NCBI GenBank assembly: GCA_964580455.1
Contig: CAZOKO010000001.1
Location: 2,992-66,991, forward strand
Direction: 5' to 3'
Length of the DNA: 64,000 nucleotides
Source of the DNA: an uncultured Thermodesulfobacteriota bacterium
Lineage (GTDB): Bacteria > Desulfobacterota > WTBG01
Shown here: piece by piece, positions 45,863 to 64,000 of the stretch
Numbering within the stretch: the stretch's first letter is position 1
How the letters are laid out: every line of letters begins with the position of its first letter
The notes under the pieces: generated by a model
The model's database searches: none
Told to the model about the DNA's origin: nothing
Seen by the model: the letters and a program-made list of their open reading frames with translations, nothing else
Translations under genes and position numbers: made by a program

Positions 45863-46085
45863 TCATTATTTATAATATTTTTCTGTTTTTCCTTTAAATC
45901 ACACCTGCAATTTCACTCACGAGATCCAACATAATATAGCTTTGAATAAAACATCTATTAACCATTTTTCGCCAATGTGAAGCTTGCTACCCCGAGGGCG
46001 AGGTTTCCTGGAATTAATTCTATTGTTTGCAAAACATACCTTTTGATCCAACTGCCCTGATATAGTTATTCCTCCCCTGAAAACT

Positions 46086-47507: not shown

Positions 47508-47624
47508 AATATACACAATCAACCCCAAAAAGTTATCATCCTATTTTCCAAATGAAAGAATACTTTTCATTATTGGCAATATAGTTTTACAGATTAACAT
47601 ATTATTTATAAAAAATAGAGCTTA

Positions 47625-48209
47625 TCATTTCCTCTCAAAAATATATAATTTATTTAAAAACTGGAATTTAACTTTTTTGATCAATTTGAATCCACATCCG
47701 ATCAACAAATTCATTATATATTCACGCTTTAGACCTTCTTCTTCACCTTCTTTTTTTTCTCTTCCTTCCTCGATTTTATCAATCCAGAACATTCTATGCC
47801 TTACTTTCCCTATTATTGGTTCAAGATTTGTTATAATGACTCTTCCATAACTTTTTAAAATTCTATCCACTTCTGTTATCACTTCCTTCCGATTTGGAAT
47901 GTGATTAAAACTAGCTACAAATGCGACAGTATCAAAAGCATTCTCTTTAAACGGTAATTTAGATGGGTCTTCAATTATGATTGCCCCTCCACTAAAATCA
48001 AAAACATCTACACCAACACTACCGTTCCCATATTTTTTCACCAGAATGTTAGGCCCACATCCAACATCTAATAATCTACCTTTTGCAAATTTTATAACTA
48101 TCTCATTGCGCTCATCGCGAATCGACTTTAAGCCAATTTTACTAGTAAATTCATGAGGCATAGATAATCTTAGAGGAAGGAAAATTTTATTTATAATACC
48201 GTATATCAC
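47625..48209 (-). CDS. class I SAM-dependent methyltransferase
   Basis: Motif I LLDVGCGPN. 194 aa. Confidence 0.6.
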   Translation of the reverse strand: MIYGIINKIFLPLRLSMPHEFTSKIGLKSIRDERNEIVIKFAKGRLLDVGCGPNILVKKYGNGSVGVDVFDFSGGAIIIEDPSKLPFKENAFDTVAFVASFNHIPNRKEVITEVDRILKSYGRVIITNLEPIIGKVRHRMFWIDKIEEGREKKEGEEEGLKREYIMNLLIGCGFKLIKKVKFQFLNKLYIFERK

Positions 48210-48284
48210 ATCCTATTACCCCTCTACTTTTGACTCTATTATTTAAACCTAACGGGATATTCTGGATTATTCTCTTCAAGACTT

Positions 48285-49154
48285 TTATTCATTAATGCGC
48301 CGCATCAGAGATATTTGATCAGCAATCAGCCCAAAGAAAAAAATATTCAAGCCAGAAATGGTTGCAAAGAGAGCACCTTTCGGGAATGAGAGAAAATAAA
48401 CAATTCCGTAAATTGAATATACAAGACCAACAAATAACATGGTTAAACCAATAGGAGCAAATATTTTTAATGGATTGAATAACATGATAATTCTTAATAT
48501 CAAAAGTAAAGTTTTAAGTCCGTCATTTGCTGTAACCAGACTTTTACCCCCAGTTCTTTTTCCTACATCTATTGGCACAAAGGTCACATTGTAGGCTGCT
48601 TTAATGAAAGCCAGTGTCATAGTAGCTGTAATAGAAAATCCGTTTGGATACAAATGTATAAATTCCATGAAAATATCTTTTCTCACAGCGCGAAACCCCG
48701 AGTTCAAATCAGGGATTTTTTTATTAACAAGATATTCCGCTGTGTGTTTCAATATCCATTTCCCAAAACTGCGAACAGCAGGCCATCTTCTTCCTCCTCG
48801 CTCTCCAACGACCATATCAAATACACTCATTTTCTCAACAAGGCGGTTTATATCATTAACTGAATGCTGACCGTCAGCATCCATCATAACAACAATATCT
48901 GTGCTGGCCAAACGAACTCCAGTCTTGATTGCCGCACCATAGCCTTTATTATATGGATGATTTATAATTTTAATTATTCCATTTTCAGAACTATTCTTAA
49001 ACTCTTCTAAAATAGTACGGCTTTCATCAGTAGATCCGTCATTTACGAAAACCAATTCAAAATCCTGTGAATCGAGGAAGTGTTTTAAACATTGTAGAAC
49101 GTCAGGCAATGTCTTTTCTTCATTGTAAACAGCTATAACAACTGTGTAATTCAT
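48285..49154 (-). CDS. Dpm1/GtrB/ArnC-like polyprenyl-phosphate glycosyltransferase (GT2) with C-terminal TM anchor
   Basis: …YTVVIAVYNEEKTLPDVL…VFVNDGSTDES… followed by two C-terminal TM helices, as in the GtrB/ArnC family. Confidence 0.7.
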   Translation of the reverse strand: MNYTVVIAVYNEEKTLPDVLQCLKHFLDSQDFELVFVNDGSTDESRTILEEFKNSSENGIIKIINHPYNKGYGAAIKTGVRLASTDIVVMMDADGQHSVNDINRLVEKMSVFDMVVGERGGRRWPAVRSFGKWILKHTAEYLVNKKIPDLNSGFRAVRKDIFMEFIHLYPNGFSITATMTLAFIKAAYNVTFVPIDVGKRTGGKSLVTANDGLKTLLLILRIIMLFNPLKIFAPIGLTMLFVGLVYSIYGIVYFLSFPKGALFATISGLNIFFFGLIADQISLMRRINE

Positions 49155-49277
49155 AACGTATTTACCCCCCCTTTTTACTACTTATGTAAACTCTCAGTTT
49201 TAACCATATTTTATTGCCTTTCAAATTTATCTCCATGCCAAATGGCATCTACTCATCTCTAAGATTCATATTAGTCA

Positions 49278-50417
49278 CTATACAAGTGCTTGATAAATTT
49301 CCACATACTTGTCAATAATACCATCCCACGCAAAATCATTCTTAACCAGTTCTTTAATATGTTTACCACATTTACCCCTCACCTGTTCATCAAGTAAAAC
49401 CTTAACTCTGTCTGCAAGTATGGAAGGGTTATCAAATTCTACCAGATAACCAGTCTCCCCATCTCTAATCAGTTCCCTGGCAATCCCAACCGGGGTTGAA
49501 ATAACAGGCAGGCCTGCAGCCGCTGCTTCCAGAATAGGCTGTCCAAAACTCTCATACTTTGATGCGTAAACAAAAATATCGGCAGAACAGTAGCACTCTA
49601 CTAGCGCATCACCAAATTGAGGTCCTGAAAAGTGTACTCTATCACCAACTCCCAACTGACTTGCCAGTTCAATCAATTCCTTAAGATATCCTCCCCTGGA
49701 GACACTGCTGGTCTTTTCCTCAGATCCAACCAGAGTGAGCTCTACTCCACCATTAATCTCCTTCAAAGCCCTTATCAGATTTTCCACTCTGCGATTCCTG
49801 GCAATCCTACCCACGAATAGCAATGTCACGCTGTCTTTTTCTTTACTATCAGTCACCTCATATCTATCAACATCGATGCCTGCCGGAATCAACCTCAACT
49901 TCTCTTCACTAATGCCAAACTCTATCGCATCCTCATATTCAACCCGACTTGAAACAACTACCAGATCAGCTCTTCTGGCTGTGAGCTTGAGGGTTAAAAG
50001 GTCATAAATAGCGTAGGGCAATCGGTCAAGCTTTCCTTCAAGATATCTTCTGTAACCCAGCAATGAGCCATGGGTACTGAGTATAAAAGGTTTCCTCTTT
50101 AATACAGAAAAAAAAAGACCCAGGTCGGCCTGAAAATTACGGTAATTATGGCTGTGAATCAGGTCAAAATCCTTAAACCCTTTAATCATTCCCAGACTGA
50201 TGCAATATCTCATCAATCGAAATTGATTACTATAGCGGGTAACCTTAATACCCTTAAAATCTTCTCTGCAGGGAAGGTTGTTATCAACATCACAATAGGT
50301 AGTTAAAACAGGGGAGCGAAAACCTCTTTGCTCTAGTTCCTGGGAAATCCTAAATGCCTGATTTGTAGGACCAGTGACATAGGGATAAAAGGTTTCTATG
50401 GTTCGAAGAATATTCAT
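49278..50417 (-). CDS. family 4 (GT-B, group 1) glycosyltransferase
   Basis: C-terminal E-x7-E region …ASKYESFGQPILEAAAAGLPVIS…. Confidence 0.75.
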   Translation of the reverse strand: MNILRTIETFYPYVTGPTNQAFRISQELEQRGFRSPVLTTYCDVDNNLPCREDFKGIKVTRYSNQFRLMRYCISLGMIKGFKDFDLIHSHNYRNFQADLGLFFSVLKRKPFILSTHGSLLGYRRYLEGKLDRLPYAIYDLLTLKLTARRADLVVVSSRVEYEDAIEFGISEEKLRLIPAGIDVDRYEVTDSKEKDSVTLLFVGRIARNRRVENLIRALKEINGGVELTLVGSEEKTSSVSRGGYLKELIELASQLGVGDRVHFSGPQFGDALVECYCSADIFVYASKYESFGQPILEAAAAGLPVISTPVGIARELIRDGETGYLVEFDNPSILADRVKVLLDEQVRGKCGKHIKELVKNDFAWDGIIDKYVEIYQALV

Positions 50418-50440
50418 CTTAATAGCTCAGCTATTTTTTA

Positions 50441-50480
50441 GACAGGATAACAGGATTGACAAGATAATTTCTAAAATGGA
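50441..50480 (-). promoter_or_regulatory. conserved 40-bp promoter-like motif (also at 55951–55995)
   Basis: The minus strand reads TTGTCA-N16-TAAAAA-N22-ATG of the GT4 gene. The same word (caggataaYagRattgacaagataatttctaaa) recurs upstream of the cupin gene start at 55925. Confidence 0.4.
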
Positions 50481-50659
50481 GGTTGCGTTGCTCGTATCGT
50501 CTAAAAGAATCTGAAAAAACATCTATCTGCGTTTACCCCGTTAGATAAAATTTCAGAATGTACCGCATTATACATTTTTGTCTTGAATTGTTTGAAACAT
50601 ACATAAAACCTATGCTGATTATCTAACGGGGTGAATCTGCGTCCAAAAATTGATTTCAA

Positions 50660-51259
50660 TTAAATTAAAATCAATTTCTCCTCTGTTACTCCTAAATCCC
50701 TAGCTTTTTTACAAATTTTTTCTTTGGAGGTCAAGGCAACAACTATCACCCGATCAAAATCAAAATCTTTAATTGACTCAACAGATTTAACCTTCTTTCC
50801 AAAGAAGTTTTTCCCCGTTTTAAAATCATCCACTACAGCTACTAAATCAAGTTTTGTTTCTTGTAAAGAAAGGTACGCAATTTCAGCAATCTCACCAGCT
50901 CCATAAAAAATAATCCTTTTAACCTTCTCCTTTTCTATTGCCAAAAAAACATTATTAAGTCTTAATCTCAAATCCTTATAGAAATTGAAGGAAAATTTCA
51001 TATACTCATAGGTAAGTTTGCTTTTCTCTGCTATTCCTTTGGGAGTCAAATTATAGATAATGCGGTTCTTGGGCATGGTATCCACCATGATATACCCTTT
51101 CTTGATTAACCTTTTTAGATACAAATTGGTTAATCCAAGGGCAATACCCAGCTTCCCGGATAGTTTTCTCTGGGTAAGGCTCTGGTCTTCTGAAACTTCC
51201 TCTAAGATACGATATGTTCGATGTGCTTCATTATCCATAAACAGTTCCAATATGTTCAA
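50660..51259 (-). CDS. winged-HTH transcriptional regulator with C-terminal Rossmann-like (Rex/CoA-binding-like) domain
   Basis: N-terminal wHTH (…LTQRKLSGKLGIALGLTNLYLKRLIKKGYI…). The C-terminal half has a GxGxxA/G-like turn (IIFYGAGEIAEIAY) and a βαβ pattern. Confidence 0.45.
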   Translation of the reverse strand: MNILELFMDNEAHRTYRILEEVSEDQSLTQRKLSGKLGIALGLTNLYLKRLIKKGYIMVDTMPKNRIIYNLTPKGIAEKSKLTYEYMKFSFNFYKDLRLRLNNVFLAIEKEKVKRIIFYGAGEIAEIAYLSLQETKLDLVAVVDDFKTGKNFFGKKVKSVESIKDFDFDRVIVVALTSKEKICKKARDLGVTEEKLILI

Positions 51260-51356
51260 TTTATGAACACTCTAACACAAAAAAAATACCTGTCAAGAAA
51301 TTTCCATGAGATTGCTTCTCTCCGTTTGCATTGATATTCCAAATGAACAACTTATA

Positions 51357-52847
51357 TCATTTACTATAGTCTTTAGTCCCACTCCTTTTTAACACACCCA
51401 CCAAACCCCTTAATGTTTCCGCCTGCTCCTGATTGGGACTGAGTTCTAAACTTCTTTGAAAGTGAAGCAGTGCTTTTTGATAATCTTTAAGATCATAGTA
51501 AAATAGAGCGCCTAAATTCTTATGAATTTCAGCAGAACCAGAATCAAGTTCTATTGCTTTTGAAAATAACCTGATTGCCTCCTGTATTTTATTATCCTTA
51601 TAGTATTTAATTGCGTGAGCATTTAATGTATTACCAAGGTGCTCATTCAGTGTTTTTTCATCATAACTGTTTATATCACCCACATCAATTTTCAAAGTGC
51701 CAGCTTCTTCCAGATATCTTAAAGCCTTTTCAGGCCACCCCCTTTTCAATGATGAAAGAGCAGCTTGCTTATATCGAAAATATTTCTCCCCTTCCGTTTT
51801 TCCCTTATGTAAACCAAGAGATGCACCATCCAAAACAATAAAGAATACCATACAAAAGGTTGTCAGGAACAAAACTGACTTCTCAAGTCTAGCTCTGGAT
51901 AGCCTCAAAAATACACTCAATAGTATAACTGATAAAAACAGCGCCAGAAGGGGAAGGAGAAGAAGAAAATAGTTCCACACAATGAGAACAAGAGAAACAC
52001 ATGAGGTCACTATAATTTTCCTTTTCATTTTAACAGAATCAATTAATGCAGCTACCCCAAAGGAAAGAATTATGTTACAGTTTAAAATAAAACGATGTCC
52101 AAAAGAGGCCTCATTTAAGAAGCCAGAACAAATTACCAGGGAGGTAAGCAGGCATAGGGAAAATATTATACTCACCCTTTTCTCCATTTTTATGAAAACA
52201 GCTAAGCCAATGAGCCCAAAAATCCATGCCGGCTCAGTTATAAAAACACCCCAATCCTTTCCTACAAAAACATATAAGATGTTTTGAAATATGTTCGTTA
52301 GAGTAAATGATACATGGCTTGCGGGTGGAAGAAGTTTACCCAATATAGTACCCCAGGCAACCAGTTGCGGCAATACAACAACAATATAAGCAACAACCAT
52401 CAACAGTACATTTCTTCCTAATAACTTCAATTCGCTAAATTTTCTCTCGTAAAAACCTCTTATTGCCTGAACAAGAAAATCGAGAAATGGAATCAAAAGA
52501 AACATTCCTGTATTTAGACGAATACTGCAAAGCATTCCCGCCGAAATTCCTAAAAGAAGATAGCCTAAAGCATTCTTGCATTTACTTCTGTACAAAACCC
52601 AGCTGTAAATGAAAAGCACCATCAACAGAAATTTCCCTGAGTGAGACATTCTCTGACGGATAAATGTGTAATAAGGAAGAGGGGTGCTGAAAAAGAGAGT
52701 TATGGTAGCAATAAGAGAAGCCTTCTCAGAGAAATATTTTTCAGAAGAGAAAAATTGAGGATCAATCCCAGGAAAACGCAAAGGCTTGATCCTATTCCCA
52801 CTAAAGCATGGTAGGGGAAAGCATATCCATCCACACCAACCTGGCAA
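51357..52847 (-). CDS. polytopic membrane protein with C-terminal TPR repeats (TMTC/PMT-like architecture); possibly the 3' part of a disrupted gene
   Basis: More than 8 TM helices followed by ~4 TPR units. The ORF-track start is a TTG and the N-terminus is ambiguous. See the adjacent fragment 52901–53272. Confidence 0.45.
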   Translation of the reverse strand: MPGWCGWICFPLPCFSGNRIKPLRFPGIDPQFFSSEKYFSEKASLIATITLFFSTPLPYYTFIRQRMSHSGKFLLMVLFIYSWVLYRSKCKNALGYLLLGISAGMLCSIRLNTGMFLLIPFLDFLVQAIRGFYERKFSELKLLGRNVLLMVVAYIVVVLPQLVAWGTILGKLLPPASHVSFTLTNIFQNILYVFVGKDWGVFITEPAWIFGLIGLAVFIKMEKRVSIIFSLCLLTSLVICSGFLNEASFGHRFILNCNIILSFGVAALIDSVKMKRKIIVTSCVSLVLIVWNYFLLLLPLLALFLSVILLSVFLRLSRARLEKSVLFLTTFCMVFFIVLDGASLGLHKGKTEGEKYFRYKQAALSSLKRGWPEKALRYLEEAGTLKIDVGDINSYDEKTLNEHLGNTLNAHAIKYYKDNKIQEAIRLFSKAIELDSGSAEIHKNLGALFYYDLKDYQKALLHFQRSLELSPNQEQAETLRGLVGVLKRSGTKDYSK

Positions 52848-52900
52848 CCCAAAAAACTATAGATTGAAGCAATAGCATGTCCTATGAGAAAGAAGGGAAT

Positions 52901-53272
52901 CTACAAAACAGCCGACCCGATAGACCAGTAATTGATGCTATACCCTGTAGGTGTTATGGTATCAAAATGGTAGTACCCCTTCTCATTGAAAAAACCAATG
53001 TCGCAGTCAAAAAAAGCAGACCGCAAATAGGCGTAGTAACCCGCATCATCACCAGCATCAATTTTGGTAATAGAATAATATCCGGTATGCTCTCCGGGAT
53101 TAATCCAAGCACTAAAAGTACCAAGGGGTGTTAAGAGGAGAAATGAGAAATAAAATACTAATAAAATTATGAGGTATGAACCATTACGCTGAAGGAATGT
53201 TGGACGGCCGTTATTCTTTAAACATTTTTGATGACCTTTCCTACTTGCAATGTCGTGGGTTGATTTATTCAC
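52901..53272 (-). pseudogene. N-terminal fragment (TM helix + acidic DAGDDAGYY loop) possibly belonging to the 51357–52847 gene via a frameshift
   Basis: 123-aa ORF directly upstream in a different frame, with a 54-bp gap. Its TM segment plus DD-containing first loop is what the N-terminus of a GT-C/TMTC-like protein would look like. Confidence 0.3.
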
Positions 53273-53299
53273 ACACGGCTTTTTTTTCGCTTCGAATTT

Positions 53300-54277
53300 T
53301 TACTCATAGAGCTGGTACTTAACCCGCCACAAATCACATCTACCACAGATTCTATTGTGGTTTTCTCTAAAGTCTTCAAACTCTTTGCTTTTCCATATTT
53401 CTCTCAGTTCTTTTTCAAAGAGATTTCCCAATCTGTATTTGGGCATACCACAGCAGGGAGTAACTTCAGCCTTTTGATTGATATAAACATAATCATAAAG
53501 TCTCAAACAGTACTTCCCAGAGCGATGAAGAATTGACTTCAAGATTTTATAGCTAACTCTTGCAAGTCCATCAAAAAGGGCATACTGAATACTGTCTACC
53601 CGGATATCGAGTTTCTTTCCCAAACGATCCGCCTCTTGTAAAACTATTCTTTCCTCCTCTGCAGAAGGTCTCTTAATATCACCATTAAATCTAGCATCCA
53701 GTCTTCCAATATTTATCCTTTCAACCCCTGCCTGCTTGCCAAATTGTATCACATCGTAAATATCCTCCCCCTTATCCTTATGCAGCGTGGTTTGGAGGGT
53801 AACTGCAGGAATAATCCCATTGCGTTCTTTCACTAAATCTCTAACATGCTTCAATACATCAAGATCCGAGTGCCCAGCCTCACTAACTCTCTTAACACTC
53901 TCTATAGAAATAGTAATTCCATCCAGGCCTGATGTGATCACTTGATGTCGAAAATCGGGGGTTAATAGAGAGCCGTTGGTTGTCAGTTTTACACTATAGC
54001 CCCTTACTTTACAGTAGGCAATCATTTCAAAAATATGGGGATGTATCAGAGGCTCTCCCCAGCCGGTTAGTGTAAGCTGTTTAACTCCTCTTAGCCGGCT
54101 AATAATCTTTTTAAAAGTCTCAAGTGGCATATCCTCTTTGAGAACCTTAAAATGATCCCTTGGGCACATTATACAATTGAGATTACACCTGTTGGTTATC
54201 TCAATTTGCGCCTGACAGGGATAATCAGGAATTATATAAAAAAGCCTCCCCAGGGTTTCTTTTGCAATATCTTTCAT
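53300..54277 (-). CDS. radical SAM protein with C-terminal SPASM/twitch-like Cys cluster
   Basis: CNLNCIMC (Cx3Cx2C) near the N-terminus. The C-terminus has …CCGMPKY…CGRCDLW…. Confidence 0.65.
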   Translation of the reverse strand: MKDIAKETLGRLFYIIPDYPCQAQIEITNRCNLNCIMCPRDHFKVLKEDMPLETFKKIISRLRGVKQLTLTGWGEPLIHPHIFEMIAYCKVRGYSVKLTTNGSLLTPDFRHQVITSGLDGITISIESVKRVSEAGHSDLDVLKHVRDLVKERNGIIPAVTLQTTLHKDKGEDIYDVIQFGKQAGVERINIGRLDARFNGDIKRPSAEEERIVLQEADRLGKKLDIRVDSIQYALFDGLARVSYKILKSILHRSGKYCLRLYDYVYINQKAEVTPCCGMPKYRLGNLFEKELREIWKSKEFEDFRENHNRICGRCDLWRVKYQLYE

Positions 54278-55296
54278 TAAATATAGCTTTTAATCAGTTT
54301 CCAGTAAAAATTTAATACTGGGCTTAATCCCTTGTCCAGCAAAGGGTGTTTTATACCACCAATACGAAGTATCCCGACAAAAAGGCAAATAATTTTACTG
54401 TCCTCAACCCTTCTCAATGCTCTGGTGATTCTTCGCTTTTTTAGAATAGAAGGGAATAAACACACTATTTCAAAGTAACTTTTACACTTAAGAATAAACC
54501 ATCCGGTAGTAAGAGCAAAACAAAGCTCAGCCATCTCTACCAGAATCAAAGCCGGAAAGATAAGTAGCAGTGTTTTAAGCTGATAATTCTTTAACAACAG
54601 TTGCAGCCGATTCTTTTCCGAATGATAAAATTTTTTGGGGTTTTTGCTGAAGTGGTATTTATGATACATAACCGCTTCAGGATTAACCATAAGTTTTTTA
54701 CCTGACAGTCTTATCCTCCAAGAGAGATCGTGGTCTTCATGGTACATAAAAAAGTCCTGATCAAAACCTCCCACCTGATTAAAAAGCTCTCGCTTAACTA
54801 AAAATATTCCACCGCAGGCAGTCTCCTCAATTTGCATATGAGCTCTATCTTCTTCGTCAATATATTTAGGACAAGCTAAACCAAGATAGTTGATAATATT
54901 TCCAAAAGAGTTGATTTTATTCCTATCATTAAAGTATAAAATTTTAGGGACTACTGCCCCCACCTTTTCATCTTCAATTATGTCGACCATCTTTTCTACA
55001 CAACACTCATCCAGGTAAAGATCATTATTTAAGAACAGAACATACTCACCACTCGAACATTCAACCCCTCTATTAACTGCAGGGCCAAATCCCATATTAT
55101 CCGGGTTAACGAGCACATTTACTACAGGAAAGAAGTCCTTCATATACTCAACCGATCCATCAACTGAGGCATTATCAATCAGCAACAGTTCCAGAGGAGT
55201 GTATGTCTGTTTCTTTAATGAAATAAAACAATCCTCAAGATGCTCCTTCCCGTTCCAATTTACCACAATGATGGATACTAACTTCTTTTTTGTCAT
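54277..55296 (-). CDS. family 2 glycosyltransferase (rhamnosyltransferase-like)
   Basis: …VSIIVVNWNGKEHLEDCF…LLLIDNASVDGS…. Confidence 0.7.
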   Translation of the reverse strand: MTKKKLVSIIVVNWNGKEHLEDCFISLKKQTYTPLELLLIDNASVDGSVEYMKDFFPVVNVLVNPDNMGFGPAVNRGVECSSGEYVLFLNNDLYLDECCVEKMVDIIEDEKVGAVVPKILYFNDRNKINSFGNIINYLGLACPKYIDEEDRAHMQIEETACGGIFLVKRELFNQVGGFDQDFFMYHEDHDLSWRIRLSGKKLMVNPEAVMYHKYHFSKNPKKFYHSEKNRLQLLLKNYQLKTLLLIFPALILVEMAELCFALTTGWFILKCKSYFEIVCLFPSILKKRRITRALRRVEDSKIICLFVGILRIGGIKHPLLDKGLSPVLNFYWKLIKSYI

Positions 55297-55303
55297 ATTT
55301 CAC

Positions 55304-55526
55304 TCGATACACGATTCAAGATTCACGATGCATGATTCATGATACACGATGGTATTTTATAACTGCCTCTCTAAAGTTATAGAGCTTTGCACCTAATTCT
55401 TCATATCTATGAAAAAATCTTTCGAAAATGTCTTTCTCAAGTGATTCAGTTTCATAAGCATCTCTAAATGAACTTTAGTTTCATTCCTGCATCCTGTATC
55501 CTCTATCCTGCATCCTGCTTGTATCA
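55304..55526. repeat. composite intergenic element E2: inverted tandem-heptamer arrays (GATNCAN x6 … ATCCTGY x5) flanking a ~130-bp AT-rich core
   Basis: Left arm gatacacgattcaagattcacgatgcatgattcatgatacacgatgg. Right arm attcctgcatcctgtatcctctatcctgcatcctgc. Confidence 0.7.
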
Positions 55527-55925
55527 TAATATCTTTTCATAAAAAGTATCGGAGTCTTTTTCATTATAGGGTTCATCAATGTAGATAAGCAGATACATCA
55601 TCTCACTGCCTGTGTTTTCAATCGCATGGGATACATGAGGAGGAATTCTTACTGTTTTAAGATGATGCTCACTCAATCTCAACTCTTCTCGCTCTCCTGA
55701 ATGCATATCTACCAGCACAAGTCGTGCTTCACCCTTAAGCACGCAATACCACTCAAATTTTCGCTTATGGTAGTGGTTCCCTTTCACATAACCAGGATAG
55801 GCAGTAGTTACCATAAATTGCCCAAACTCTTTTTCTCTGATCAATTCCTCTTTGCGGACAATCTCAGCCAACCAGCCCCGTTCATCCTTTTTTGTATCAA
55901 GTGAATTAACCTCAACTCCCTTCAT
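55524..55925 (-). CDS. cupin-fold sugar-nucleotide isomerase/epimerase-like protein (FdtA/WxcM-C-like)
   Basis: 133-aa double-stranded β-helix with His-rich metal/sugar-binding strands (…GNHYHKRKFEWYCVLKGEARL…PPHVSHAIEN…). Confidence 0.45.
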   Translation of the reverse strand: MKGVEVNSLDTKKDERGWLAEIVRKEELIREKEFGQFMVTTAYPGYVKGNHYHKRKFEWYCVLKGEARLVLVDMHSGEREELRLSEHHLKTVRIPPHVSHAIENTGSEMMYLLIYIDEPYNEKDSDTFYEKIL

Positions 55926-56049
55926 CTACTATTCCTCTTGAAACTATTTATACAGGATAATAGAATTGACAAGATAATTTCTAAATCCTGTTCACTCTAT
56001 TACCCTATTAAGTATTTTTCCTATTCAAATCCGCAAGATTTTAGACCAG

Positions 56050-56919
56050 CTATTTCCTCCTAAACCATTCATAGGTCATCTTCAAGCCATCTTTAATCTC
56101 CATCTGGGGACTCCAGTTAAATTGCTCCCTGCATTTGGTATTATCTCCCCACCAAATTATCTCATTATCCTGCGAGTCATCCTTATATTCCACCTCGATT
56201 ATTTTTCCTGAAATCTCAGATAACATCTCGATAATCTGATTGACAGTTACTACTTTTCCAGAACAGAGGTTGACTATTTCTACTCCTTCTTGTTTATAGT
56301 TTATAACTTGTAAAAGCACCTGGATCACATCACTGATATAAAGAAAATCTCTGCCCTGCTTACCAGAACCATACACAGTAAACGGCTTATTCTGGGTTAA
56401 AAGATCAGAAAAAGTAGAAATCACCGAATTATAGTAGGGTTTACACCCGGGCCCAAAGAAATTTGACCCCCTGAAAATAATACTTCTGATTTGATAACAG
56501 GAAATTATTTCTTCAGCAGTTTTTTTAGAAACGCCATAAATGTTTTCAGGGGATGCAGGGTGGAGTTCGTTTATAATGCCTGACTTCTCTGGTACCTGAT
56601 ATACCTGAAAAGAAGACAGGTAAACCAATTGAACATCACGTTTGGCGTAAGCAGTTATAGCTTCCAGGACATTTAAGGTGCCAAGGACATTTGTTTTGAT
56701 CAGATTTTCCTTAGTATCTCTGTTTACACCGGCCAGATGAAAGATTACTTCTTTATCTTCCACAAAGGACTTCATACTTTCCATTTGAAAAAGGTTGTAT
56801 TTCTTTTTATCAAAAGGTTCAACCTCTACCTCAGGCATAGAGATTAAAGCATTCAGTAAATGTCTGCCAACAAAACCATAAGCTCCTGTAATACCAATCT
56901 TCATTGCGATCTGATCCAC
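56050..56919 (-). CDS. NAD(P)-dependent epimerase/dehydratase/reductase (SDR, short form)
   Basis: GITGAYGFVG Rossmann motif over 289 aa. Confidence 0.65.
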   Translation of the reverse strand: MDQIAMKIGITGAYGFVGRHLLNALISMPEVEVEPFDKKKYNLFQMESMKSFVEDKEVIFHLAGVNRDTKENLIKTNVLGTLNVLEAITAYAKRDVQLVYLSSFQVYQVPEKSGIINELHPASPENIYGVSKKTAEEIISCYQIRSIIFRGSNFFGPGCKPYYNSVISTFSDLLTQNKPFTVYGSGKQGRDFLYISDVIQVLLQVINYKQEGVEIVNLCSGKVVTVNQIIEMLSEISGKIIEVEYKDDSQDNEIIWWGDNTKCREQFNWSPQMEIKDGLKMTYEWFRRK

Positions 56920-57842
56920 TCCTCGGTTCTGGCAATCCCCTCTTTAAGACTTACGTTAGGTTTCCATCCCAAAAGTGATTTAGCCTTAGAGTAATCACAG
57001 CAAAGCCTGGCTATCTCTGATTGAGGATGGTGGTGGGGAATATGTTTTATCCTGTTCCTATCCTGACAAACAAGCAGTGCAAGTTCATTGATCGAGATAT
57101 CCTCACCCGTTCCCGCATTTACTACATGGCCAATAGCCTCTTCAGCAAAAGATGCTTCCAGGAGAAAATCTGCACAATCCTCTACATAGAGGAGGTCACG
57201 GGTTTGAGTGCCATCACCAAATATCTCCAGGTCCTTCCCCTCCAAGTACCTCTTAATAAAAATGGAAACCACTCCCCCCTCCATATTACTTTTTTGAAAA
57301 GGGCCATAGGTATTAAATGGTCTGCAAACAACCACAGGTAAACCATACCCATAATAGTAGGACTCCGCCAAATTCTCTGCTGCCAGTTTAGAACCGGCAT
57401 AAGGCGAAACGGGTTTCACCTGGTGCTGCTCATTGATAGCATTAGAAGAATGAACCAGATCATAGACCATACAGGTACCAACCAGAACGACTTTTGTTTT
57501 ATAGTTGCGAGCCTCTTCTAATATATTATAGGTCCCTGTTATATTGGTAGTAAATGCCTTTTCCGGATCGTCGAGGCTTTCCTGCACATTAATCTGGGCT
57601 GCCAGGTGAATACAGAGATCAAAGTGGTTAAGAAAAAGTTTCCTTATTAAATCTCTTTCTCTTATATCTCCCTTGATAAATTCCCTGTAAGCATCACTGC
57701 GTCGCAGTCCTCTCAGATTATCTTCACTCCCGTTGGACAGGTTATCGAGCACCCATACTTCGATATCTTTGTCCATTTCAAGCAACCCCTTAACAACCCA
57801 CCTTCCTATAAATCCCGCCCCACCGGTAACCAGTACCTTCAT
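56901..57842 (-). CDS. NAD-dependent nucleotide-sugar epimerase/dehydratase (SDR)
   Basis: [15 protein letters not shown] and a YAGSK catalytic region. Confidence 0.7.
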   Translation of the reverse strand: MKVLVTGGAGFIGRWVVKGLLEMDKDIEVWVLDNLSNGSEDNLRGLRRSDAYREFIKGDIRERDLIRKLFLNHFDLCIHLAAQINVQESLDDPEKAFTTNITGTYNILEEARNYKTKVVLVGTCMVYDLVHSSNAINEQHQVKPVSPYAGSKLAAENLAESYYYGYGLPVVVCRPFNTYGPFQKSNMEGGVVSIFIKRYLEGKDLEIFGDGTQTRDLLYVEDCADFLLEASFAEEAIGHVVNAGTGEDISINELALLVCQDRNRIKHIPHHHPQSEIARLCCDYSKAKSLLGWKPNVSLKEGIARTEEWIRSQ

Positions 57843-58798
57843 TTAATATGCCTCCGATACCATTCAGCAGTTCTTTTTAGTCCTTCTTCCAGGGAATACT
57901 GAGGCTCCCATCCAGTCTTCTTTTTAATTTCAGAATAGTCCGCCTCTAGCGACATGAGATCAGCTGATCGCCCTTTTTGGTAAACAATCTCAGAAGTTGA
58001 ACCTGTTATGTCTAAAATTATCCTTGTCAAATCTTTAATGGAAGTCTGTTTACCCGTTCCAATATTGAAAATTTCACCGGCCAATTCCCTACCTCTCTCG
58101 ACAACCAATACATAAGCATGAACAGCATCCTTTACATACTGAAAATCCCTTGTCTGCTCTCCTTGATTATGGATAACAAGAGGTTCCCCTTTAAGAGCTT
58201 TGACCAGATAGTTAGAGATTACACCAGCATTTCCACTTATATCCTGGTTTTCACCAAAAGTATTAAAATTCCTCAATATGACAACCGGGTATTTATACCA
58301 CTGATACATGGCATAGCAATGCTTTTCTGCTGCTAATTTGGTTACCGCATAGATACTTCGAGGAAGCATGGGATGATTAATATCCATAGGGGTATAAATA
58401 GGATTACCATAGACCTCCGGTGAAGAGGCATAAATAAGAAGAGGCCATTTTTTCACTCTCACCAGTGTCTGCATAAATCGAAAGGTTCCATATTCATTAT
58501 TCTTAAAATAATCTTCCTGCCTCTCCATGGATTCTGGAATGGAGATATGTGCAGCTAAATGCACTACCACATCCAGATTCATCTGGTCAATCTCTTCAAA
58601 GGTTAAATCATAAAACTTCCCTTCTATGAGCTTAAACTTTTGTTTAAACTGTTCTGATTTGATAAAGGGGTCTTTTTCGAAATATTCTCGGGAGAAATCA
58701 TCAATCCCTATCACCTGACTAACATCTTCTCTCTTTACCAGTTCATCCACTAGATGAACACCATAAAGACCTGCAGCACCCGTAATTAAAATTCTCAT
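57839..58798 (-). CDS. NAD-dependent nucleotide-sugar epimerase/dehydratase (SDR)
   Basis: ILITGAAGLYGVHLV and a YAVTK catalytic region. Start trimmed to MRILITG. Confidence 0.7.
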   Translation of the reverse strand: MRILITGAAGLYGVHLVDELVKREDVSQVIGIDDFSREYFEKDPFIKSEQFKQKFKLIEGKFYDLTFEEIDQMNLDVVVHLAAHISIPESMERQEDYFKNNEYGTFRFMQTLVRVKKWPLLIYASSPEVYGNPIYTPMDINHPMLPRSIYAVTKLAAEKHCYAMYQWYKYPVVILRNFNTFGENQDISGNAGVISNYLVKALKGEPLVIHNQGEQTRDFQYVKDAVHAYVLVVERGRELAGEIFNIGTGKQTSIKDLTRIILDITGSTSEIVYQKGRSADLMSLEADYSEIKKKTGWEPQYSLEEGLKRTAEWYRRHIK

Positions 58799-58856
58799 TC
58801 CTACTCCTTTCCTCACTTTTCAGTCAATTAAATGCCCTCTAGTAGCTAGCCAATTC

Positions 58857-60293
58857 TCATCTTCTCACAGGGAATACTGTTATAAGAAAGGCATAAAAAC
58901 CTTTTAAAATCCTGAAAATATTACCGGGATTTTTAACCATCCTTAAGAAATAATTCCAAATAATGCGTGGTCTCAAATAAAATTCTTTTAACATCCTTCT
59001 AGTACTGCTGTTGAGTATCTCTTCATCCAAACCTTTCGGAATAAAAACAGGCTGCAGCAGATTCATTTTATCCCAACTATTTGTAAAAACCCCATACTGG
59101 TGAGCAATCTCATAAAGTTCTGAGCCCGGGAAAGGGGTAAGCATCATTACACTGATATCATTCAGAGGTATCTTTTTAGCAAGATTTATTGTCTTAGAAA
59201 TGGTTTCCTCACTTTCAAGAGGATGACCTACCATAAAGAACCCCTTTGTCAGGATTCCCGCTTCTCTGGTCCATGCAACCGCCTGCTCCACCTGAGCTAA
59301 ATCAATCTTTTTCTTCTCCAGGTCAAGAATATGCTGTGCTCCACTTTCAATACCGTACCCTATCTCCCAACACCCGGCTTTGTGCATCAGTTCTAATATC
59401 TCCGGGGTTACCATGTCTACTCTCCCCAGACAGGACCAGGAGAGGTCAAGCTTTTCTCTCAAAATAGACTCGCATATTTTAATTAATCTTGATTTAAACA
59501 TTACAAAGGTATCATCTTCTATTAGTAATTCTTTTATCCCATATCCATAAACCAGCTCCTTAATCCAGTTGATGATATACTCGGAACTGAAAGCTCGACA
59601 GCGATTGCCAAAGACCGATCGGTCACAAAAGATGCACCGATTAGGACACCCCCTGCTGGTTACAATAGCTGCAGCAGGAAAACGTGCCATCTTGAAAGGA
59701 GGAGGATGAAATGCCCTGGGGAAGCCCTCAAGAAGATCATGGGCCGGAAAAGGGAGCTGATCCAAATCTTCAATTAACTCTCTCGAAGAAGTAAGCTTAA
59801 GAGACCTATCCTCGCCTTCCCCCTCTCTATATATAACACCTTTAACTGTTTCCAGTTTTTCCCCATTTTCTAATGCTTTCAACAATTCAACTATGGTTGT
59901 CTCACCTTCTCCAACAACACCTACATCAAAGTCAGAAAAACGCTCCATGGTCTCCTGAGGTGCCGAAGTAATATGGGGCCCCCCAACAATAATTGTAATA
60001 TTCTCATCAATCAGTTTTATACATCCTGCCAGTTGAGCTGCAGTACCGATTGAGAAGGTAGTAGCAGATAGCCCTACATGGCAGGGCTTAATCTCCCTGA
60101 TTTTCTGGAGCACCTGCCCCTGATCTAAATCCCTGGCAGCAGCCTCAATTACTAAGGAGTCAAATCCATACTTCCTGGTTACGGCAGCAAGTGAGATTAT
60201 ACCCAGCGAAGGCATCGCATTGCCCGCCTTAGCCCATGAACCGTATCGCGCTTCGAGGGATAAGGGGGGGGTCATAAAAATTATACTACTCAT
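58857..60293 (-). CDS. B12-binding-domain radical SAM protein (class B), second copy
   Basis: Cobalamin-binding N-domain plus SRGCPNRCIFCD. Confidence 0.7.
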   Translation of the reverse strand: MSSIIFMTPPLSLEARYGSWAKAGNAMPSLGIISLAAVTRKYGFDSLVIEAAARDLDQGQVLQKIREIKPCHVGLSATTFSIGTAAQLAGCIKLIDENITIIVGGPHITSAPQETMERFSDFDVGVVGEGETTIVELLKALENGEKLETVKGVIYREGEGEDRSLKLTSSRELIEDLDQLPFPAHDLLEGFPRAFHPPPFKMARFPAAAIVTSRGCPNRCIFCDRSVFGNRCRAFSSEYIINWIKELVYGYGIKELLIEDDTFVMFKSRLIKICESILREKLDLSWSCLGRVDMVTPEILELMHKAGCWEIGYGIESGAQHILDLEKKKIDLAQVEQAVAWTREAGILTKGFFMVGHPLESEETISKTINLAKKIPLNDISVMMLTPFPGSELYEIAHQYGVFTNSWDKMNLLQPVFIPKGLDEEILNSSTRRMLKEFYLRPRIIWNYFLRMVKNPGNIFRILKGFYAFLITVFPVRR

Positions 60294-60553
60294 AAACGTA
60301 CTCTTTAAACCATAAAAGAAGTTAATGCTAAAGCAGGAATGACAGTTTGTTTTGAATTCTGTACTCTGTAATTTTCATTTTTACTTGGCCGAGCTCAGCC
60401 AGGCATTGTCTGTTCAACTTAATTTCTAATATCACATTTTATATTATTATTCCAGTAATTGTAAAACTAAAGAAATATCTTGTATTTCAACTCCATTTTG
60501 ATAAACTGGTGCAGGTTACATTCAGTTACCACCCATAAGAGATTATTGATAAG

Positions 60554-61315
60554 TTGACTACTAGCAGGAACTGTAAATTGAATACATCATCCAAAATTCT
60601 GACAATCATACCGGCTCTCAATGAAGAAAAGAACATTGCCCAGGTAATTGACGGCATCAAGAAAAACGCACCTTTCTGTGACATTCTGGTAATCGATGAC
60701 GGTTCTTCTGATTCCACTGCGGTACTCGCTAAAACAACAGGTGCTAAAGTTATCCATCTGCCGTTCAATATGGGATATGGGATTGCCCTTCAAACAGGAT
60801 ATAAGTATGCCCTTGAGAACGGCTATCACTACATGGCACAGATAGATGGCGATGGTCAGCACGATCCTCAATACATCAAAGAGCTTTTAGAGATAGTTAC
60901 ATCTGGGGAAGCCGACATTACTATAGGGTCCAGATTTTCAAAAAATAATAGAAATCACACCTATAAAGCTGGGTGGGTAAAACGGACAGGCATTATACTG
61001 TTTGCCTACATTACCTCAATAATCATAAAACAAAAGGTTTCTGATCCTACTTCAGGATATCAAGCTATCAATAGAAAGGTAGCAAAATTCTATGCCAGTG
61101 AATCATATCCTTCCGACTATCCTGACGCTGATGTCATCATTATGCTTCATCGAGCCGGTTTCAGAATTAAAGAGCTTCCTGTTGTCATGTACCAGAACAG
61201 GAACAGGAAATCGATGCACAGCGGTATGAAACCATTTTATTACATCTTCAAGATGTTCCTTTCTATCTTTCTCACCCTTTTGAGAAAAAGTGAACTGCTA
61301 AACCAGAGAAATTAG
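60554..61315 (+). CDS. Dpm1/GtrB-like polyprenyl-phosphate glycosyltransferase (GT2)
   Basis: …ILTIIPALNEEKNIAQVI…LVIDDGSSDST… with a C-terminal amphipathic/TM tail. Confidence 0.7.
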   Translation: MTTSRNCKLNTSSKILTIIPALNEEKNIAQVIDGIKKNAPFCDILVIDDGSSDSTAVLAKTTGAKVIHLPFNMGYGIALQTGYKYALENGYHYMAQIDGDGQHDPQYIKELLEIVTSGEADITIGSRFSKNNRNHTYKAGWVKRTGIILFAYITSIIIKQKVSDPTSGYQAINRKVAKFYASESYPSDYPDADVIIMLHRAGFRIKELPVVMYQNRNRKSMHSGMKPFYYIFKMFLSIFLTLLRKSELLNQRN

Positions 61316-61320
61316 AGAAT

Positions 61321-61692
61321 ATGCCCTTACAACAGAAGTTTTTTGCTATCATCATCAGTCTTTCTCTTCTGGTATTTATCATCGAGCTGGTACGACGGAA
61401 AAAGCTGAGGGAAGAATATTCCTGGCTCTGGTTACTGACAGGAACTATAATCTTGATACTTGCCCTCTGGTATGACCTGCTGCAATGGATGACAAGTCTT
61501 ATCGGTGCAGGACTTCCAACTTCTACACTCTTCTTTCTGGGGCTGGTTTTTCTCATCCTGATTGCTATTCAGTTTTCGGTAAAGGTATCAGCATTACATA
61601 CTCAGGTTAAAAACCTGGCACAAGAAAATGGACTGCTTAAAAACAGGATTGAAAATCTGGAAGAAGGGGACACCCCTAAAAGAGAGAAATAA
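61321..61692 (+). CDS. DUF2304-like small membrane protein (GtrB partner)
   Basis: 123 aa with three TM helices and a C-terminal coiled-coil tail. It lies immediately downstream of the GtrB-like gene, which is the conserved arrangement for this family. Confidence 0.55.
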   Translation: MPLQQKFFAIIISLSLLVFIIELVRRKKLREEYSWLWLLTGTIILILALWYDLLQWMTSLIGAGLPTSTLFFLGLVFLILIAIQFSVKVSALHTQVKNLAQENGLLKNRIENLEEGDTPKREK

Positions 61693-61708
61693 AAAAGGAG
61701 AGCTTACA

Positions 61709-62983
61709 ATGGGGAAAAAGAAGAAAAAAGGGGGATCCAAAGACACAACAACCAGTGTGACCACTCGGGTAAATGGAGCACCATCACCTGACAAACAGAC
61801 TGGCATTAAATATATAATCTTTTCCCTCCTCTCTATTATAATTCTTGGTATAATCATCTATTCCAATACCTTTGATGCTTCCTGGCACTTCGATGACCAC
61901 ACCGCTATTGTAGAAAATTATGGTATCAGAAACCTTAAAGGGACAATTTTTAGCGGAGGGTCAAGGTGGATAGGGTTCATTAGCTTTGCCCTCAACTACC
62001 ATTTTGGGAAGCTTGATGTGTTTGGTTATCATCTGGTCAATATCTGCATTCACCTTATAAGTGCCATTCTGGTATACTTTTTAGTGCTTTTAAGCTTCAA
62101 GACACCCTGTTTAAAAGACAACAAAATCTCCCATTATGCAGCGTCTATTTCCCTGGCTTCAGGCTTAATATTTGTAGCCCATCCCATTCAAACCCAGGCT
62201 GTAACATACATTGTTCAACGCTTCACGTCCCTGGCTACACTCTTCTACCTCCTCTCCCTGGTTCTCTTCATCAAGGCACGATTACAAAACCAGGAGGGGG
62301 GAAGTTTTTTCTCTCCTTCACACCTGGCATGCTATTTGGGCTCTCTCTTAGCTGCCTATCTTGCAATGAAAACTAAAGAGATTACTATAACCCTGCCGGT
62401 AATTATTCTGCTCTATGAATTCTCTTTTTTCAGCCCCTCCTTAAGAGCACTCGCAAGAAAGCTTCCTTATCTCATTCCATTACTGCTCACCTTTTTCATC
62501 ATTCCTTTCTCCCGCTATGGAATCGGACTGCTTGGTATATCAGGTGGTACTTTTATGGGAATAGCAGAAGTCGGTGATATCATTGGAGATGCAACCCAGG
62601 AAACTGCAACTATCTCACGAACAGATTATCTTCTAACCCAATTTAATGTCATAGTAACCTACATCCGATTACTCTTCTTCCCTGTTAATCAGAATCTTGA
62701 CTACGACTACCCCATTTCACGTACTCTCTTCGCATTTCCCACATTTTTCTCTTTCCTTTTCCTGATATCAGTTGTCATCTTTGCCGTTTGGATGTTTAAG
62801 AAGTCACGGCTAATCTCTTTTGGTATTTTCTGGTTTTTCATCACCCTATCGGTAGAGTCAAGCATTATTCCTATAAGAGATGTTATCTTTGAGCACAGGG
62901 TCTATCTTCCTTCCGTGGGTTTCGTTATATTTTTAACGGTCGCCATCTACCAGATGATGGGGCAGATAAAGACCAAACCCTAG
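61709..62983 (+). CDS. TMTC-like (DUF1736) polytopic membrane protein, TPR part encoded separately
   Basis: …FDASWHFDDHTAIVEN… DD motif in the first loop and …FVAHPIQTQAVTYIVQRFTSLATLFYLLSL… matching the conserved HP.HTEAV…R block of TMTC/DUF1736 proteins. Start chosen at ATG 61709, which has an AAAAGGAG RBS. Confidence 0.6.
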   Translation: MGKKKKKGGSKDTTTSVTTRVNGAPSPDKQTGIKYIIFSLLSIIILGIIIYSNTFDASWHFDDHTAIVENYGIRNLKGTIFSGGSRWIGFISFALNYHFGKLDVFGYHLVNICIHLISAILVYFLVLLSFKTPCLKDNKISHYAASISLASGLIFVAHPIQTQAVTYIVQRFTSLATLFYLLSLVLFIKARLQNQEGGSFFSPSHLACYLGSLLAAYLAMKTKEITITLPVIILLYEFSFFSPSLRALARKLPYLIPLLLTFFIIPFSRYGIGLLGISGGTFMGIAEVGDIIGDATQETATISRTDYLLTQFNVIVTYIRLLFFPVNQNLDYDYPISRTLFAFPTFFSFLFLISVVIFAVWMFKKSRLISFGIFWFFITLSVESSIIPIRDVIFEHRVYLPSVGFVIFLTVAIYQMMGQIKTKP

Positions 62984-63016
62984 CGAAGCTTCACCTCACC
63001 GACGAGCCTTCGCTAT

Positions 63017-63217
63017 ACTAGATACTGGATACTGGATGCAAGATACAATATGTAGGATTTCGTTCTAACAGGGTAAATATCGGTGTTTATAAATCGGTTA
63101 TGGGTACAACCAAAATTAAGAGCAACTCAACCGTGTTACGAAAGACGAAACGAGCAGCGCAACCGAATAACGAGCAACTTTTTTATCTAGGATCCAGTAT
63201 CTAGCATCCAGCATCAC
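63017..63217. repeat. composite intergenic element E3: inverted tandem-heptamer arrays (ACTGGAT… / …ATCCAGY) flanking a ~140-bp core
   Basis: Left arm gatactggatactggatgcaagataca, right arm ggatccagtatctagcatccagcatc; the two are reverse complements at the unit level. The core shares ctcaaccgtNtta and ggttgcg(c/t)tgc words with E1. Confidence 0.7.
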
Positions 63218-63310
63218 TTTGCATAAGTGTATCTTTTAAAAAAACTTGACTCATTTATTAAGTTTTCGGACTACTAATAGACAGCTAGAGGAACTGAATA
63301 GTGTGCCGAT

Positions 63311-64000
63311 ATGGTTTCGACGATAGAAAAACCTTTTCCAAACGGTTTATCCCTTTTGAAAGTTTACATATTAATTATTATACTTTTCGTTCTTACAGCT
63401 AATCATAGAAACAAGATCTGGAACCGGGAAGAAACCCTATGGCTGGATAACATCGAAAAAGCTCCCTTAAAGGCACGGCCTTACCATAGCCTGGGAGTTC
63501 ACTGCATGGATGAAGAAAATTACATCCAGGCTATTAAACATTTTAAGCATGCCCTCCAATTAGACCCTACCTACTCTTCAGCATATAATAACCTCGGCTC
63601 ATCATATAAAATGCAAGGAGCTTATCAAGAAGCAAAACAGGCTTTTAAAAAGGCACTTAAGATTAACCCTTCTTACGTCAAAGCCCTTTATAATTTGGGC
63701 AATCTCTACCACCACCGGGAATTATACAGGCAGGCAGAAGAAGCATATGAAAAAGCATTACGTATAAATCCCGGACTTCCTCAGGCACACAACAATCTGG
63801 GAAGCATCTATAATCATCATCAACAATACGATAAAGCCATATCAGCATTTAAAGAGGCGCTGTCAACAGACCCCCTCTTTGAAATGGCATATAATAATAT
63901 TGGCATTGCTTTCTATAACACAGGTCTCTACCAGGAAGCTATGAAGCACTACCAGAAAGCTATCCAGATCAATCCCAAATTCACTGATGCCTATAATAAC
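63311..64000 (+). CDS. membrane-anchored TPR protein (partial, runs off the window)
   Basis: ATG at 63311, one TM helix, then TPR units (…YNNLGSSY…YNLGNLY…). It is a paralogue of 18158–19177 and the likely TPR half of the split TMTC-like gene. Confidence 0.6.
   Translation, partial: MVSTIEKPFPNGLSLLKVYILIIILFVLTANHRNKIWNREETLWLDNIEKAPLKARPYHSLGVHCMDEENYIQAIKHFKHALQLDPTYSSAYNNLGSSYKMQGAYQEAKQAFKKALKINPSYVKALYNLGNLYHHRELYRQAEEAYEKALRINPGLPQAHNNLGSIYNHHQQYDKAISAFKEALSTDPLFEMAYNNIGIAFYNTGLYQEAMKHYQKAIQINPKFTDAYNN

Follow-up and report, generated by a model that had tools for sequence, protein, structure and literature searches.

A Conserved Bacterial Operon Encodes a Split TMTC-Like Glycosyltransferase Core and Five Distinct TM-TPR Proteins with a Probable Role in Periplasmic Glycosylation

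We analyzed an operon at positions 60554 to 64000 of a 64,000-nucleotide (nt) stretch of DNA (hereafter, the window) from an uncultured Thermodesulfobacteriota bacterium. The open reading frame (ORF) map shows four densely packed ORFs, all on the plus strand. They encode a family 2 glycosyltransferase (GT2) of the polyprenyl-phosphate-sugar synthase type (PpgS/GacI/Dpm1-like; 60554 to 61315), a small DUF2304 membrane protein (GacJ/Rv3632 family; 61321 to 61692), a polytopic protein (ORF 61628/61709 to 62983), and a protein with tetratricopeptide repeats (TPRs), which starts at 63311 and is cut by the window end. The polytopic protein, when read from 61709 to 62983, has 424 amino acids (aa) and corresponds to transmembrane (TM) helices TM1 to TM10 only of a TMTC-like enzyme with the glycosyltransferase C (GT-C) fold; we call it the core, and the TPR protein (63311 to 64000 in the window) tail 1 (T1). 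The spacing is 5 nt between the GT2 and DUF2304 genes and 16 nt between the DUF2304 gene and the core gene. The core and T1 ORFs are separated by 327 nt of noncoding DNA with many stops, which contain a 301-bp noncoding insertion, element E3 (62984 to 63284, plus strand), recognized by its absence from a related contig. The exact core sequence is carried by the ENA contig SUTE22-1_SAMN10231913_METAG-scaffold_397, whose locus (L163) equals window positions 51709 to 64000 with 1 mismatch in 12,292 bases and extends beyond the window end.

On this source contig, the core is followed by five tandem genes for TM-RNxxW-TPR proteins of 512, 462, 406, 329, and 408 aa; T1 is the first, and T2 to T5 lie just past the window end. 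The initial annotation had recognized the separately encoded TPR half at 63311, which indeed supplies the missing TM11 and TPR portion, and missed that five distinct TM-TPR genes, not one, follow the core. The full-length T1 gene is present in L163 and in L001, a contig with 97.5% DNA identity, and on the source contig it ends at window-equivalent position 64849. T1 has a cytoplasmic N terminus, one TM helix (the equivalent of TM11), a juxtamembrane HRNKIW...TLW... motif, and TPRs (Pfam TPR_1, 1e-50). The other tails share this plan: each has a short N terminus, one TM helix, a QRNxxW...(T/S)LWxD...K.P..R motif, and TPRs. R, N, W, W, and K, the motif positions without variation among 38 fused homologues, are retained.

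The array is conserved in two clades of split loci, clade A (close relatives, including L001, L003, and L085) and clade B (55 to 63% identity, including L005, L088, and L092). Five tails together with GT2, DUF2304, and core genes were found in L001, L003, and L085; in clade B, L005 and L088 have five tails each and L092 has at least four. The tails of L001 and L003 pair one to one, with identities of 61% (T1), 63% (T2), 60% (T3), 57% (T4), and 69% (T5) and with conserved lengths, whereas different tails are only 30 to 39% identical among themselves. For these pairs, the nonsynonymous rate (dN) is 0.20 to 0.31 and the synonymous rate (dS) is saturated, with dN/dS of 0.14 to 0.16 where it can be estimated; the part of T1 inside the window gives 0.136. 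One-to-one orthology was not established between clade A and clade B tails, whose identities are 29 to 37%. Because five tails follow the core, each conserved as its own orthologue, we read the array as one core with alternative tails. Furthermore, a natural fusion protein, P0018, joins a core (79% identical) to a T4 orthologue (70% identical), which is Rosetta-stone-type evidence that core and tails act together. In its AlphaFold 2 (AF2) model, with a predicted local distance difference test (pLDDT) score of 85.7, a 4-residue loop joins TM10 to TM11 with pLDDT values of 82 to 91. Foldseek returned only TPR proteins for this model, and its TPR part resembles the TPR domains of OGT and SPY (E values of 1e-14 to 1e-12).

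Three further features of the tails and their surroundings were observed. The array ends with a fused TMTC-like paralogue carrying its own TM11 and TPRs. In this gene (L163:18540-18720, about 6.5 kb beyond the window end), an ATG start with MSRKKRNKPD..QQKKK lies in one frame, and TM1 and FVFDD, which follow a run of nine A residues (CAGAAAAAAAAACTC, an A_AAA_AAA slippery site), are read in the -1 frame. The run and the frame arrangement are common to four contigs (L163, L001, L085, and L003), from lineages whose proteins are 79% identical, and they could reflect programmed -1 frameshifting, transcriptional slippage, or phase variation. In addition, a motif scan of the window found an orphan TM-TPR tail of 339 aa (18158 to 19177, plus strand) with one TM helix, QRNNIW...LW, and TPRs. 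It is 37 to 39% identical to T5 and T1, directly follows thiamine biosynthesis genes (ThiD/ThiN and ThiC by Pfam), and lies far from any TMTC-like core; it is a candidate additional partner for the operon core. Finally, the gap between T1 and T2 holds wholly different short repeat-like sequences in L163 (13142-13461) and L001 (3099-3287), strains that are otherwise 96 to 99% identical: GGATAC-type heptamers in one strain, and a palindromic GTCATTGCGAGG...CGCAATGAC element in the other.

By profile comparison, the polytopic ORF is a genuine TMTC homologue and thus a GT-C protein, in agreement with its initial annotation. Using hhalign, we compared a profile of 29 core homologues with the N-domain alignment of animal TMTC1 to TMTC4 (8 sequences) taken from the supplement of PMC7801869. 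The local alignment gave a probability of 99.9% (E value of 2.3e-32, 348 columns) and the global alignment one of 100% (E value of 3e-43, 377 columns), spanning TM1 to TM10, and the window core as a single sequence reached 99.4% (E value of 1.3e-21) against the TMTC profile. A shuffled core gave 1.2%, and 44213 and 51357, polytopic ORFs elsewhere in the window, gave about 1%. In the AF2 model of the core (pLDDT of 80.8; predicted template modeling score of 0.84), the top four Foldseek matches in the PDB were STT3, AglB, and Pmt4 (twice), all of them GT-C proteins, with probabilities of 0.87 to 0.99 and E values of 0.2 to 0.5. The core gene has a dN/dS of 0.068; its dN between L001 and L003 is 0.13, with dS saturated.

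We scored TMTC motifs M1 to M5 and M7 as defined in PMC7801869. M1 is kept as HFDD, with D62 invariant and D63 present in at least 90% of homologues, and aligns with D52/D53 of TMTC1 in the first extracytoplasmic loop (EL1). M4 is kept as K223-E224...T228, invariant in the homologues (KE(T/Q)xxT in TMTC); for M5, D333-Y334 of the core aligns to the DW of the DUF1736 loop; and for M7, E395-H-R397-V-Y399 aligns to AERVLY (ERxxY), with the Arg one position off. M4, M5, and M7 are metal and phosphate ligands in TMTC (PMC7801869). The two motifs on which the initial annotation had relied, the DD of the first loop and HP.QTQAVTYIVQR, are present and invariant in the core homologues. The latter (H158-P159...R171) aligns to HPIHTEAVAGIVGRAD of TMTC, in the EL2/M3 region, and not to DUF1736, the TM7-TM8 loop, with which it had been associated. 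Taken together, the core and TMTC share DD in EL1, R..F.LN, YHLVN, HP..T.AV...R, KE...T, D-aromatic, and E.R.Y-PS.G.

The separation of core and tail is, as judged from these sequence comparisons, ancient, conserved, and kept by selection. The core stops after TM10 in all 13 split loci, which cover 55 to 100% identity and both clades, and which vary in the gap (9 to 45 nt), the relative frame (0, 1, or 2), and the stop (TAG or TGA). Long gaps occur in 2 of the 13, namely, the window (327 nt, with E3) and L091 (362 nt). Since TMTC proteins have the N terminus inside, 11 TM helices, and the TPRs outside (PMC7801869), the break falls in the cytoplasmic TM10-TM11 loop, and the tail N termini are rich in Lys and Arg, which fits an N-in orientation. 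The initial annotation had raised the question of whether orthologues in other genomes are fusions, and about 70 of the 79 reference-genome relatives are indeed single TM+TPR proteins (Nitrospirota, Thermodesulfobacteriota, Omnitrophota, and Geomonas). Fused relatives are also found in the cultured Geomonas azotofigens and G. paludis (loci L068 and L075). Pseudogenization of the split halves was ruled out by dN/dS and by conserved gene lengths.

The two upstream genes point to a lipid-linked sugar donor, and their initial assignment as a polyprenyl-phosphate-sugar synthase with a DUF2304 partner held up. The GT2 (Pfam Glycos_transf_2, 1.9e-26; gene start at 60578 in the gene call of the source contig) has DDG and DGD motifs and a single C-terminal hydrophobic helix, and it is 78% identical to its L003 orthologue (dN of 0.136, dS saturated). 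Its top NCBIfam matches, PpgS (2.7e-31), AglJ, and dolichyl-phosphate hexose transferase, are all families of polyprenyl-phosphate sugar makers. All of them score under the equivalog cutoffs (108.7 bits versus 370 for PpgS), and therefore the sugar cannot be named. The protein encoded at 61321 to 61692 matches DUF2304 (Pfam, 9.4e-27) and presumably serves as an activator and partner of the GT2, whose gene it adjoins in both split clades. GacJ, of the DUF2304 family, associates with the GlcNAc-P-undecaprenol synthase GacI in a complex and boosts its activity, its mycobacterial homologue Rv3632 stimulates PpgS, and the products of both pairs feed a GT-C transferase (bioRxiv 10.1101/180810).

The linkage of core orthologues to Dpm1-like genes, which the initial annotation had made a point of, was also recovered. 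The GT2 and DUF2304 genes lie directly upstream in the single locus with at least 75% identity, in 4 of 6 loci at 55 to 75%, and in 2 of 88 below 55%, where the TMTC-like genes are mostly fused; the shorter close-clade contigs L003, L083, and L084 agree. The TMTC-like family has many paralogues per genome, most of them without this linkage, a pattern consistent with a single synthase that serves several transferases. In the clade B locus L005, a PMT_2-family GT-C protein of 583 aa (4002-5753; Pfam, 1.4e-8) is encoded immediately 5' of the GT2 gene and may also draw on this lipid-linked sugar.

We favor, with somewhat better than even confidence, the interpretation that this is a conserved operon for periplasmic glycosylation from a lipid-linked sugar, in which one core works in trans with alternative acceptor-recognition tails. 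By homology, the GT2, aided by the DUF2304 protein, would charge polyprenyl phosphate with the sugar of a nucleotide-sugar on the cytoplasmic side of the membrane. The lipid-linked sugar would then be flipped to the periplasmic side, a step for which no flippase gene could be assigned, and the TM1-TM10 core, a TMTC homologue with a putative transferase activity, would pass the sugar to a periplasmic acceptor. The TPR superhelix, here provided by a separate polypeptide with its own TM11 and RNxxW...W motif, would pick the acceptor. The core thus probably pairs in trans with alternative tails aimed at different acceptors, and the analogy with TMTC and the OGT-like TPR fold suggests that these are probably proteins. 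More tentatively, and at a little less than even confidence, the system may be a combinatorial GT-C enzyme, with one core and any of at least five exchangeable TM11-TPR subunits, each for a different set of periplasmic proteins to be O-glycosylated. If so, subunit swapping would solve what animals solve with four fused TMTC paralogues, and orphan tails such as that at 18158 to 19177 would widen the repertoire.

Several results weigh against this interpretation. Pfam at an E value of ≤10 gave no relevant match for the core ORF, DUF1736 and PMT_2 included, so that the profile check envisaged in the initial annotation came out negative; likewise, none of the 29 unfused core homologues gave a relevant Pfam match, with DUF1736 and PMT_2 negative for all of them at this threshold. 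No PF08409 (TMTC_DUF1736) match was precomputed among 120 listed core relatives, and only the downstream paralogue of L003 gave a subthreshold match (4.2e-4; 20.6 bits versus a cutoff of 27). No NCBIfam family matches the core ORF. A TM-only core profile found nothing among PDB sequences, TPR proteins swamped the output of a mixed core and TPR profile, and no TMTC structure was returned by the fold and sequence searches of the PDB with the core; the Foldseek E values for the core model are weak (0.2 to 3). Among the catalytic motifs, M2 (SHKSY) is missing from the core, where the alignment has a gap, although R86 and the following F.LN are kept, and in M3 (RxD) R171 is kept and the acidic residue is Thr (R-F-T). 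M2 (SHKSYRP) is modeled as mannose contacting in TMTC (PMC7801869). With SHKSY missing and the M3 acid exchanged for Thr, mannose cannot be assumed to be the donor, and the chemistry may differ. In addition, a flippase gene (GtrA or Wzx-like) was not found in the operon, which consists of the GT2, DUF2304, core, tail, and paralogue genes. Given the great abundance of TPR proteins in the genomes concerned, some tails might act independently of the core. All data come from uncultured organisms.

Such independence lies at the center of one alternative, in which the core acts alone on a glycan or lipid acceptor, like ArnT and GacL, and the tails serve on their own as periplasmic scaffolds or chaperones, linked to the C-terminal halves of the fused enzymes by common descent only. 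It agrees with the fact that many GT-C enzymes work without TPRs (bioRxiv 10.1101/180810), with the stand-alone tail at 18158, away from any core, and with a few tails beside fused genes in L045, L135, L136, and L154. We regard it as unlikely, however, because the tails retain TM11 along with the juxtamembrane residues that never vary among fused enzymes, always come directly after the TPR-less core in both split clades, and include one that is fused to a core in P0018, and because no TPR-less core lacks a tail among contigs reaching far enough downstream. A different division of labor, with T1 as the sole partner in a two-piece enzyme and T2 to T5 redundant or serving other enzymes such as the downstream fused paralogue, would account for the position of T1 next to the core (gap of 9 to 45 nt) and for the other TMTC-like gene that closes the array. 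This seems quite improbable to us: P0018 joins the core to a T4 orthologue rather than to T1, L091 has a T2-like tail right after its core, and the downstream paralogue has its own TM11 and TPRs.

Two other explanations concern only the junction, and both are extremely improbable. The initial annotation correctly placed E3 between the core and T1 ORFs and suggested that it may have split a formerly fused TM+TPR gene, which would mean recent fission or pseudogenization. E3 does lie exactly between the two ORFs, which are in the same frame in the window. The proposal is already refuted by L001, which lacks exactly positions 62984 to 63284 with clean junctions, and yet has its core and TPR gene split: the core ends at TGA, and the TPR gene begins 13 nt on in another frame. 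Moreover, the split is common to lineages down to 55% identity, with purifying selection on both halves. Thus, E3 is not the cause of the split, since E3-free relatives are split too. Stop codon read-through or ribosomal frameshifting across the junction might also be imagined to yield a single fused polypeptide, as the core of L003, L004, L084, and L085 ends at TAG and, after a gap of 9 nt, the tail begins in the same frame. We rejected this scenario on the basis of the variable frames, stops, and gaps: other lineages have frame 1 or 2, TGA stops, and gaps of 13 to 45 nt, and the window has 327 nt with many stops. Furthermore, recoding could join T1 only and would leave T2 to T5 unexplained.

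Among known systems, the eukaryotic protein O-mannosyltransferases TMTC1 to TMTC4 (CAZy GT105; GT-C fold with C-terminal TPRs) are homologous to the core over TM1 to TM10 of their N-domain, and both systems have an RN at the end of TM11, with TPRs beyond it on the noncytoplasmic side. The present system, unlike TMTC, is bacterial, has the core and TM11-TPR portions as separate genes with five alternative tails, lacks SHKSY, the M3 acid, and a Pfam DUF1736 match, and would use as its donor a bacterial polyprenyl-phosphate sugar from an operon-encoded synthase. TMTC enzymes O-mannosylate cadherins, TMTC3 mutation causes cobblestone lissencephaly, and full-length prokaryotic TMTC homologues have been mentioned earlier as uncharacterized (PMC7801869). 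The adjacency of GT2 and DUF2304 genes is shared with GacI-GacJ-GacL of Streptococcus pyogenes and PpgS-Rv3632-Rv3779 of Mycobacterium tuberculosis, in which a polyprenyl-phosphate-N-acetylhexosamine synthase feeds an outer-face GT-C enzyme (bioRxiv 10.1101/180810). GacL and Rv3779, however, modify cell wall polysaccharides and have no TPRs, whereas the present operon has no GacK-type flippase gene and its GT2 is far below the PpgS equivalog cutoff. As in GtrA/GtrB/GtrC and ArnC/ArnT, cytoplasmic synthesis of a polyprenyl-monophosphate sugar would precede extracytoplasmic GT-C transfer; unlike the Gtr type, no flippase is encoded, the GT-C protein is of the TMTC type, and TPR-guided acceptor recognition is proposed. 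The TPR fold of the tail part of P0018 is like that of OGT and SPINDLY (SPY), whose TPRs bind protein substrates, although OGT and SPY are soluble GT-B enzymes with nucleotide-sugar donors, no membrane core, and TPRs fused to the catalytic domain.

To our knowledge, conserved fission with multiplied recognition subunits would be an unusual GT-C route to diversified specificity. With a synthase, an activator, a lone core, and separate recognition modules in one operon, the locus would be a naturally split and compact model system, in which one could express the core and the tails and then mix and exchange them. Protein or envelope glycosylation would also be indicated for Thermodesulfobacteriota, Nitrospirota, and Omnitrophota, in which thousands of fused relatives bear no annotation other than "tetratricopeptide repeat protein."

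E3 itself is a recent, incidental strain-level insertion, which entered the 13 nt that separate the core from T1. Direct repeats of CTAG stand on either side of it (62980 to 62983 and 63285 to 63288), and it shows a presence/absence polymorphism; because the empty site in L001 reads CCAG, not CTAG, the target duplication may be shorter than 4 nt. E3 contains subterminal inverted GGATAC-type heptamer repeats and a core motif of about 60 nt, and its predicted fold is a long imperfect hairpin (z = -2.3). Neither terminal inverted repeats at its exact ends nor a transposase was identified, and no convincing promoter or terminator was found in it. A known RNA was ruled out, as Rfam gave no match at the gathering score and only chance-level matches at an E value of <1. 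A second, diverged E3-type copy (13838 to 14110, minus strand; blastn blocks and alignment) lies between a pfkB kinase gene and a RodZ-like gene. The 24-nt E3 core ATCGGTRTTTRTRAATCGGTTATG occurs in the window only in E3 and this copy, with 0 occurrences expected by chance, and an exact-pattern scan of the metagenome collection for the E3 core gave 0 matches. With its polymorphism, duplicated target, inverted repeats, and more than one copy, E3 has the character of a MITE-like or cassette-relic mobile insertion. Three short-read contigs break off inside E3.

In clade B relatives, the 60-nt core motif recurs 2 to 3 times per locus. Repeats with this core flank 23S_rRNA_IVP (PF05635) genes (L005, 6642-7380 and 13749-14108), and in L005 the motif lies beside such a gene inserted between the GT2 and DUF2304 genes. 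The 23S_rRNA_IVP genes of clade B, which show a weak bAvd-like match, sit in intergenic gaps of the same operon. Because its core motif stands beside these cassettes, E3 looks like a gene-less relic or miniature, and such cassettes and relics seem to have landed repeatedly in the intergenic gaps of the operon.

Upstream of the operon, a divergent intergenic region (60294 to 60553; ORF map), which we presume to be a promoter region and which gave weak consensus promoter matches only, separates the GT2 gene from a sugar modification block on the minus strand (53300 to 60293; Pfam and synteny). This block encodes a B12-binding radical SAM enzyme, three SDR epimerase/dehydratases, a cupin sugar isomerase, a GT2, and a SPASM radical SAM enzyme. 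Its gene order and orientation are the same upstream of the operon in L085 (66 to 84% aa identity) and on the source contig; it is conserved in clade A and not in clade B. The block is a possible source of the donor nucleotide-sugar.

It forms part of a larger sugar modification and glycan assembly region (44213 to 60293, minus strand), with two B12-binding radical SAM enzymes (46086 and 58857), the SPASM radical SAM enzyme, a methyltransferase, several SDR epimerase/dehydratases, the cupin isomerase, and GT2 and GT4 enzymes, whose content suggests an unusual, possibly C-methylated, deoxysugar. Two unclassified polytopic proteins are also encoded there, one at 44213 and one at 51357 with two C-terminal TPRs. 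The initial annotation had taken 48285 and 44213 for a second Dpm1-like/GT-C-like pair and 51357 for another TM+TPR gene. The ArnC/AglJ-like protein at 48285 is indeed a polyprenyl-phosphate-type GT2, with best matches to AglJ and ArnC, and the GT-C likeness of 44213 could not be verified. With hhalign probabilities of about 1%, both 44213 and 51357 were rejected as core paralogues or TMTC-like proteins, neither of them showing similarity to the core family or to TMTC.

Within the glycan gene cluster, HEPN/HepT-like and nucleotidyltransferase (MNT-type) gene pairs are clustered at 40250 to 43600 on the minus strand. They are bracketed by a 255-nt direct repeat (40312 to 40566 and 43333 to 43587; 94% identical) and shorter repeats, and look like toxin-antitoxin modules inserted between a GDP-mannose 4,6-dehydratase gene and downstream genes.

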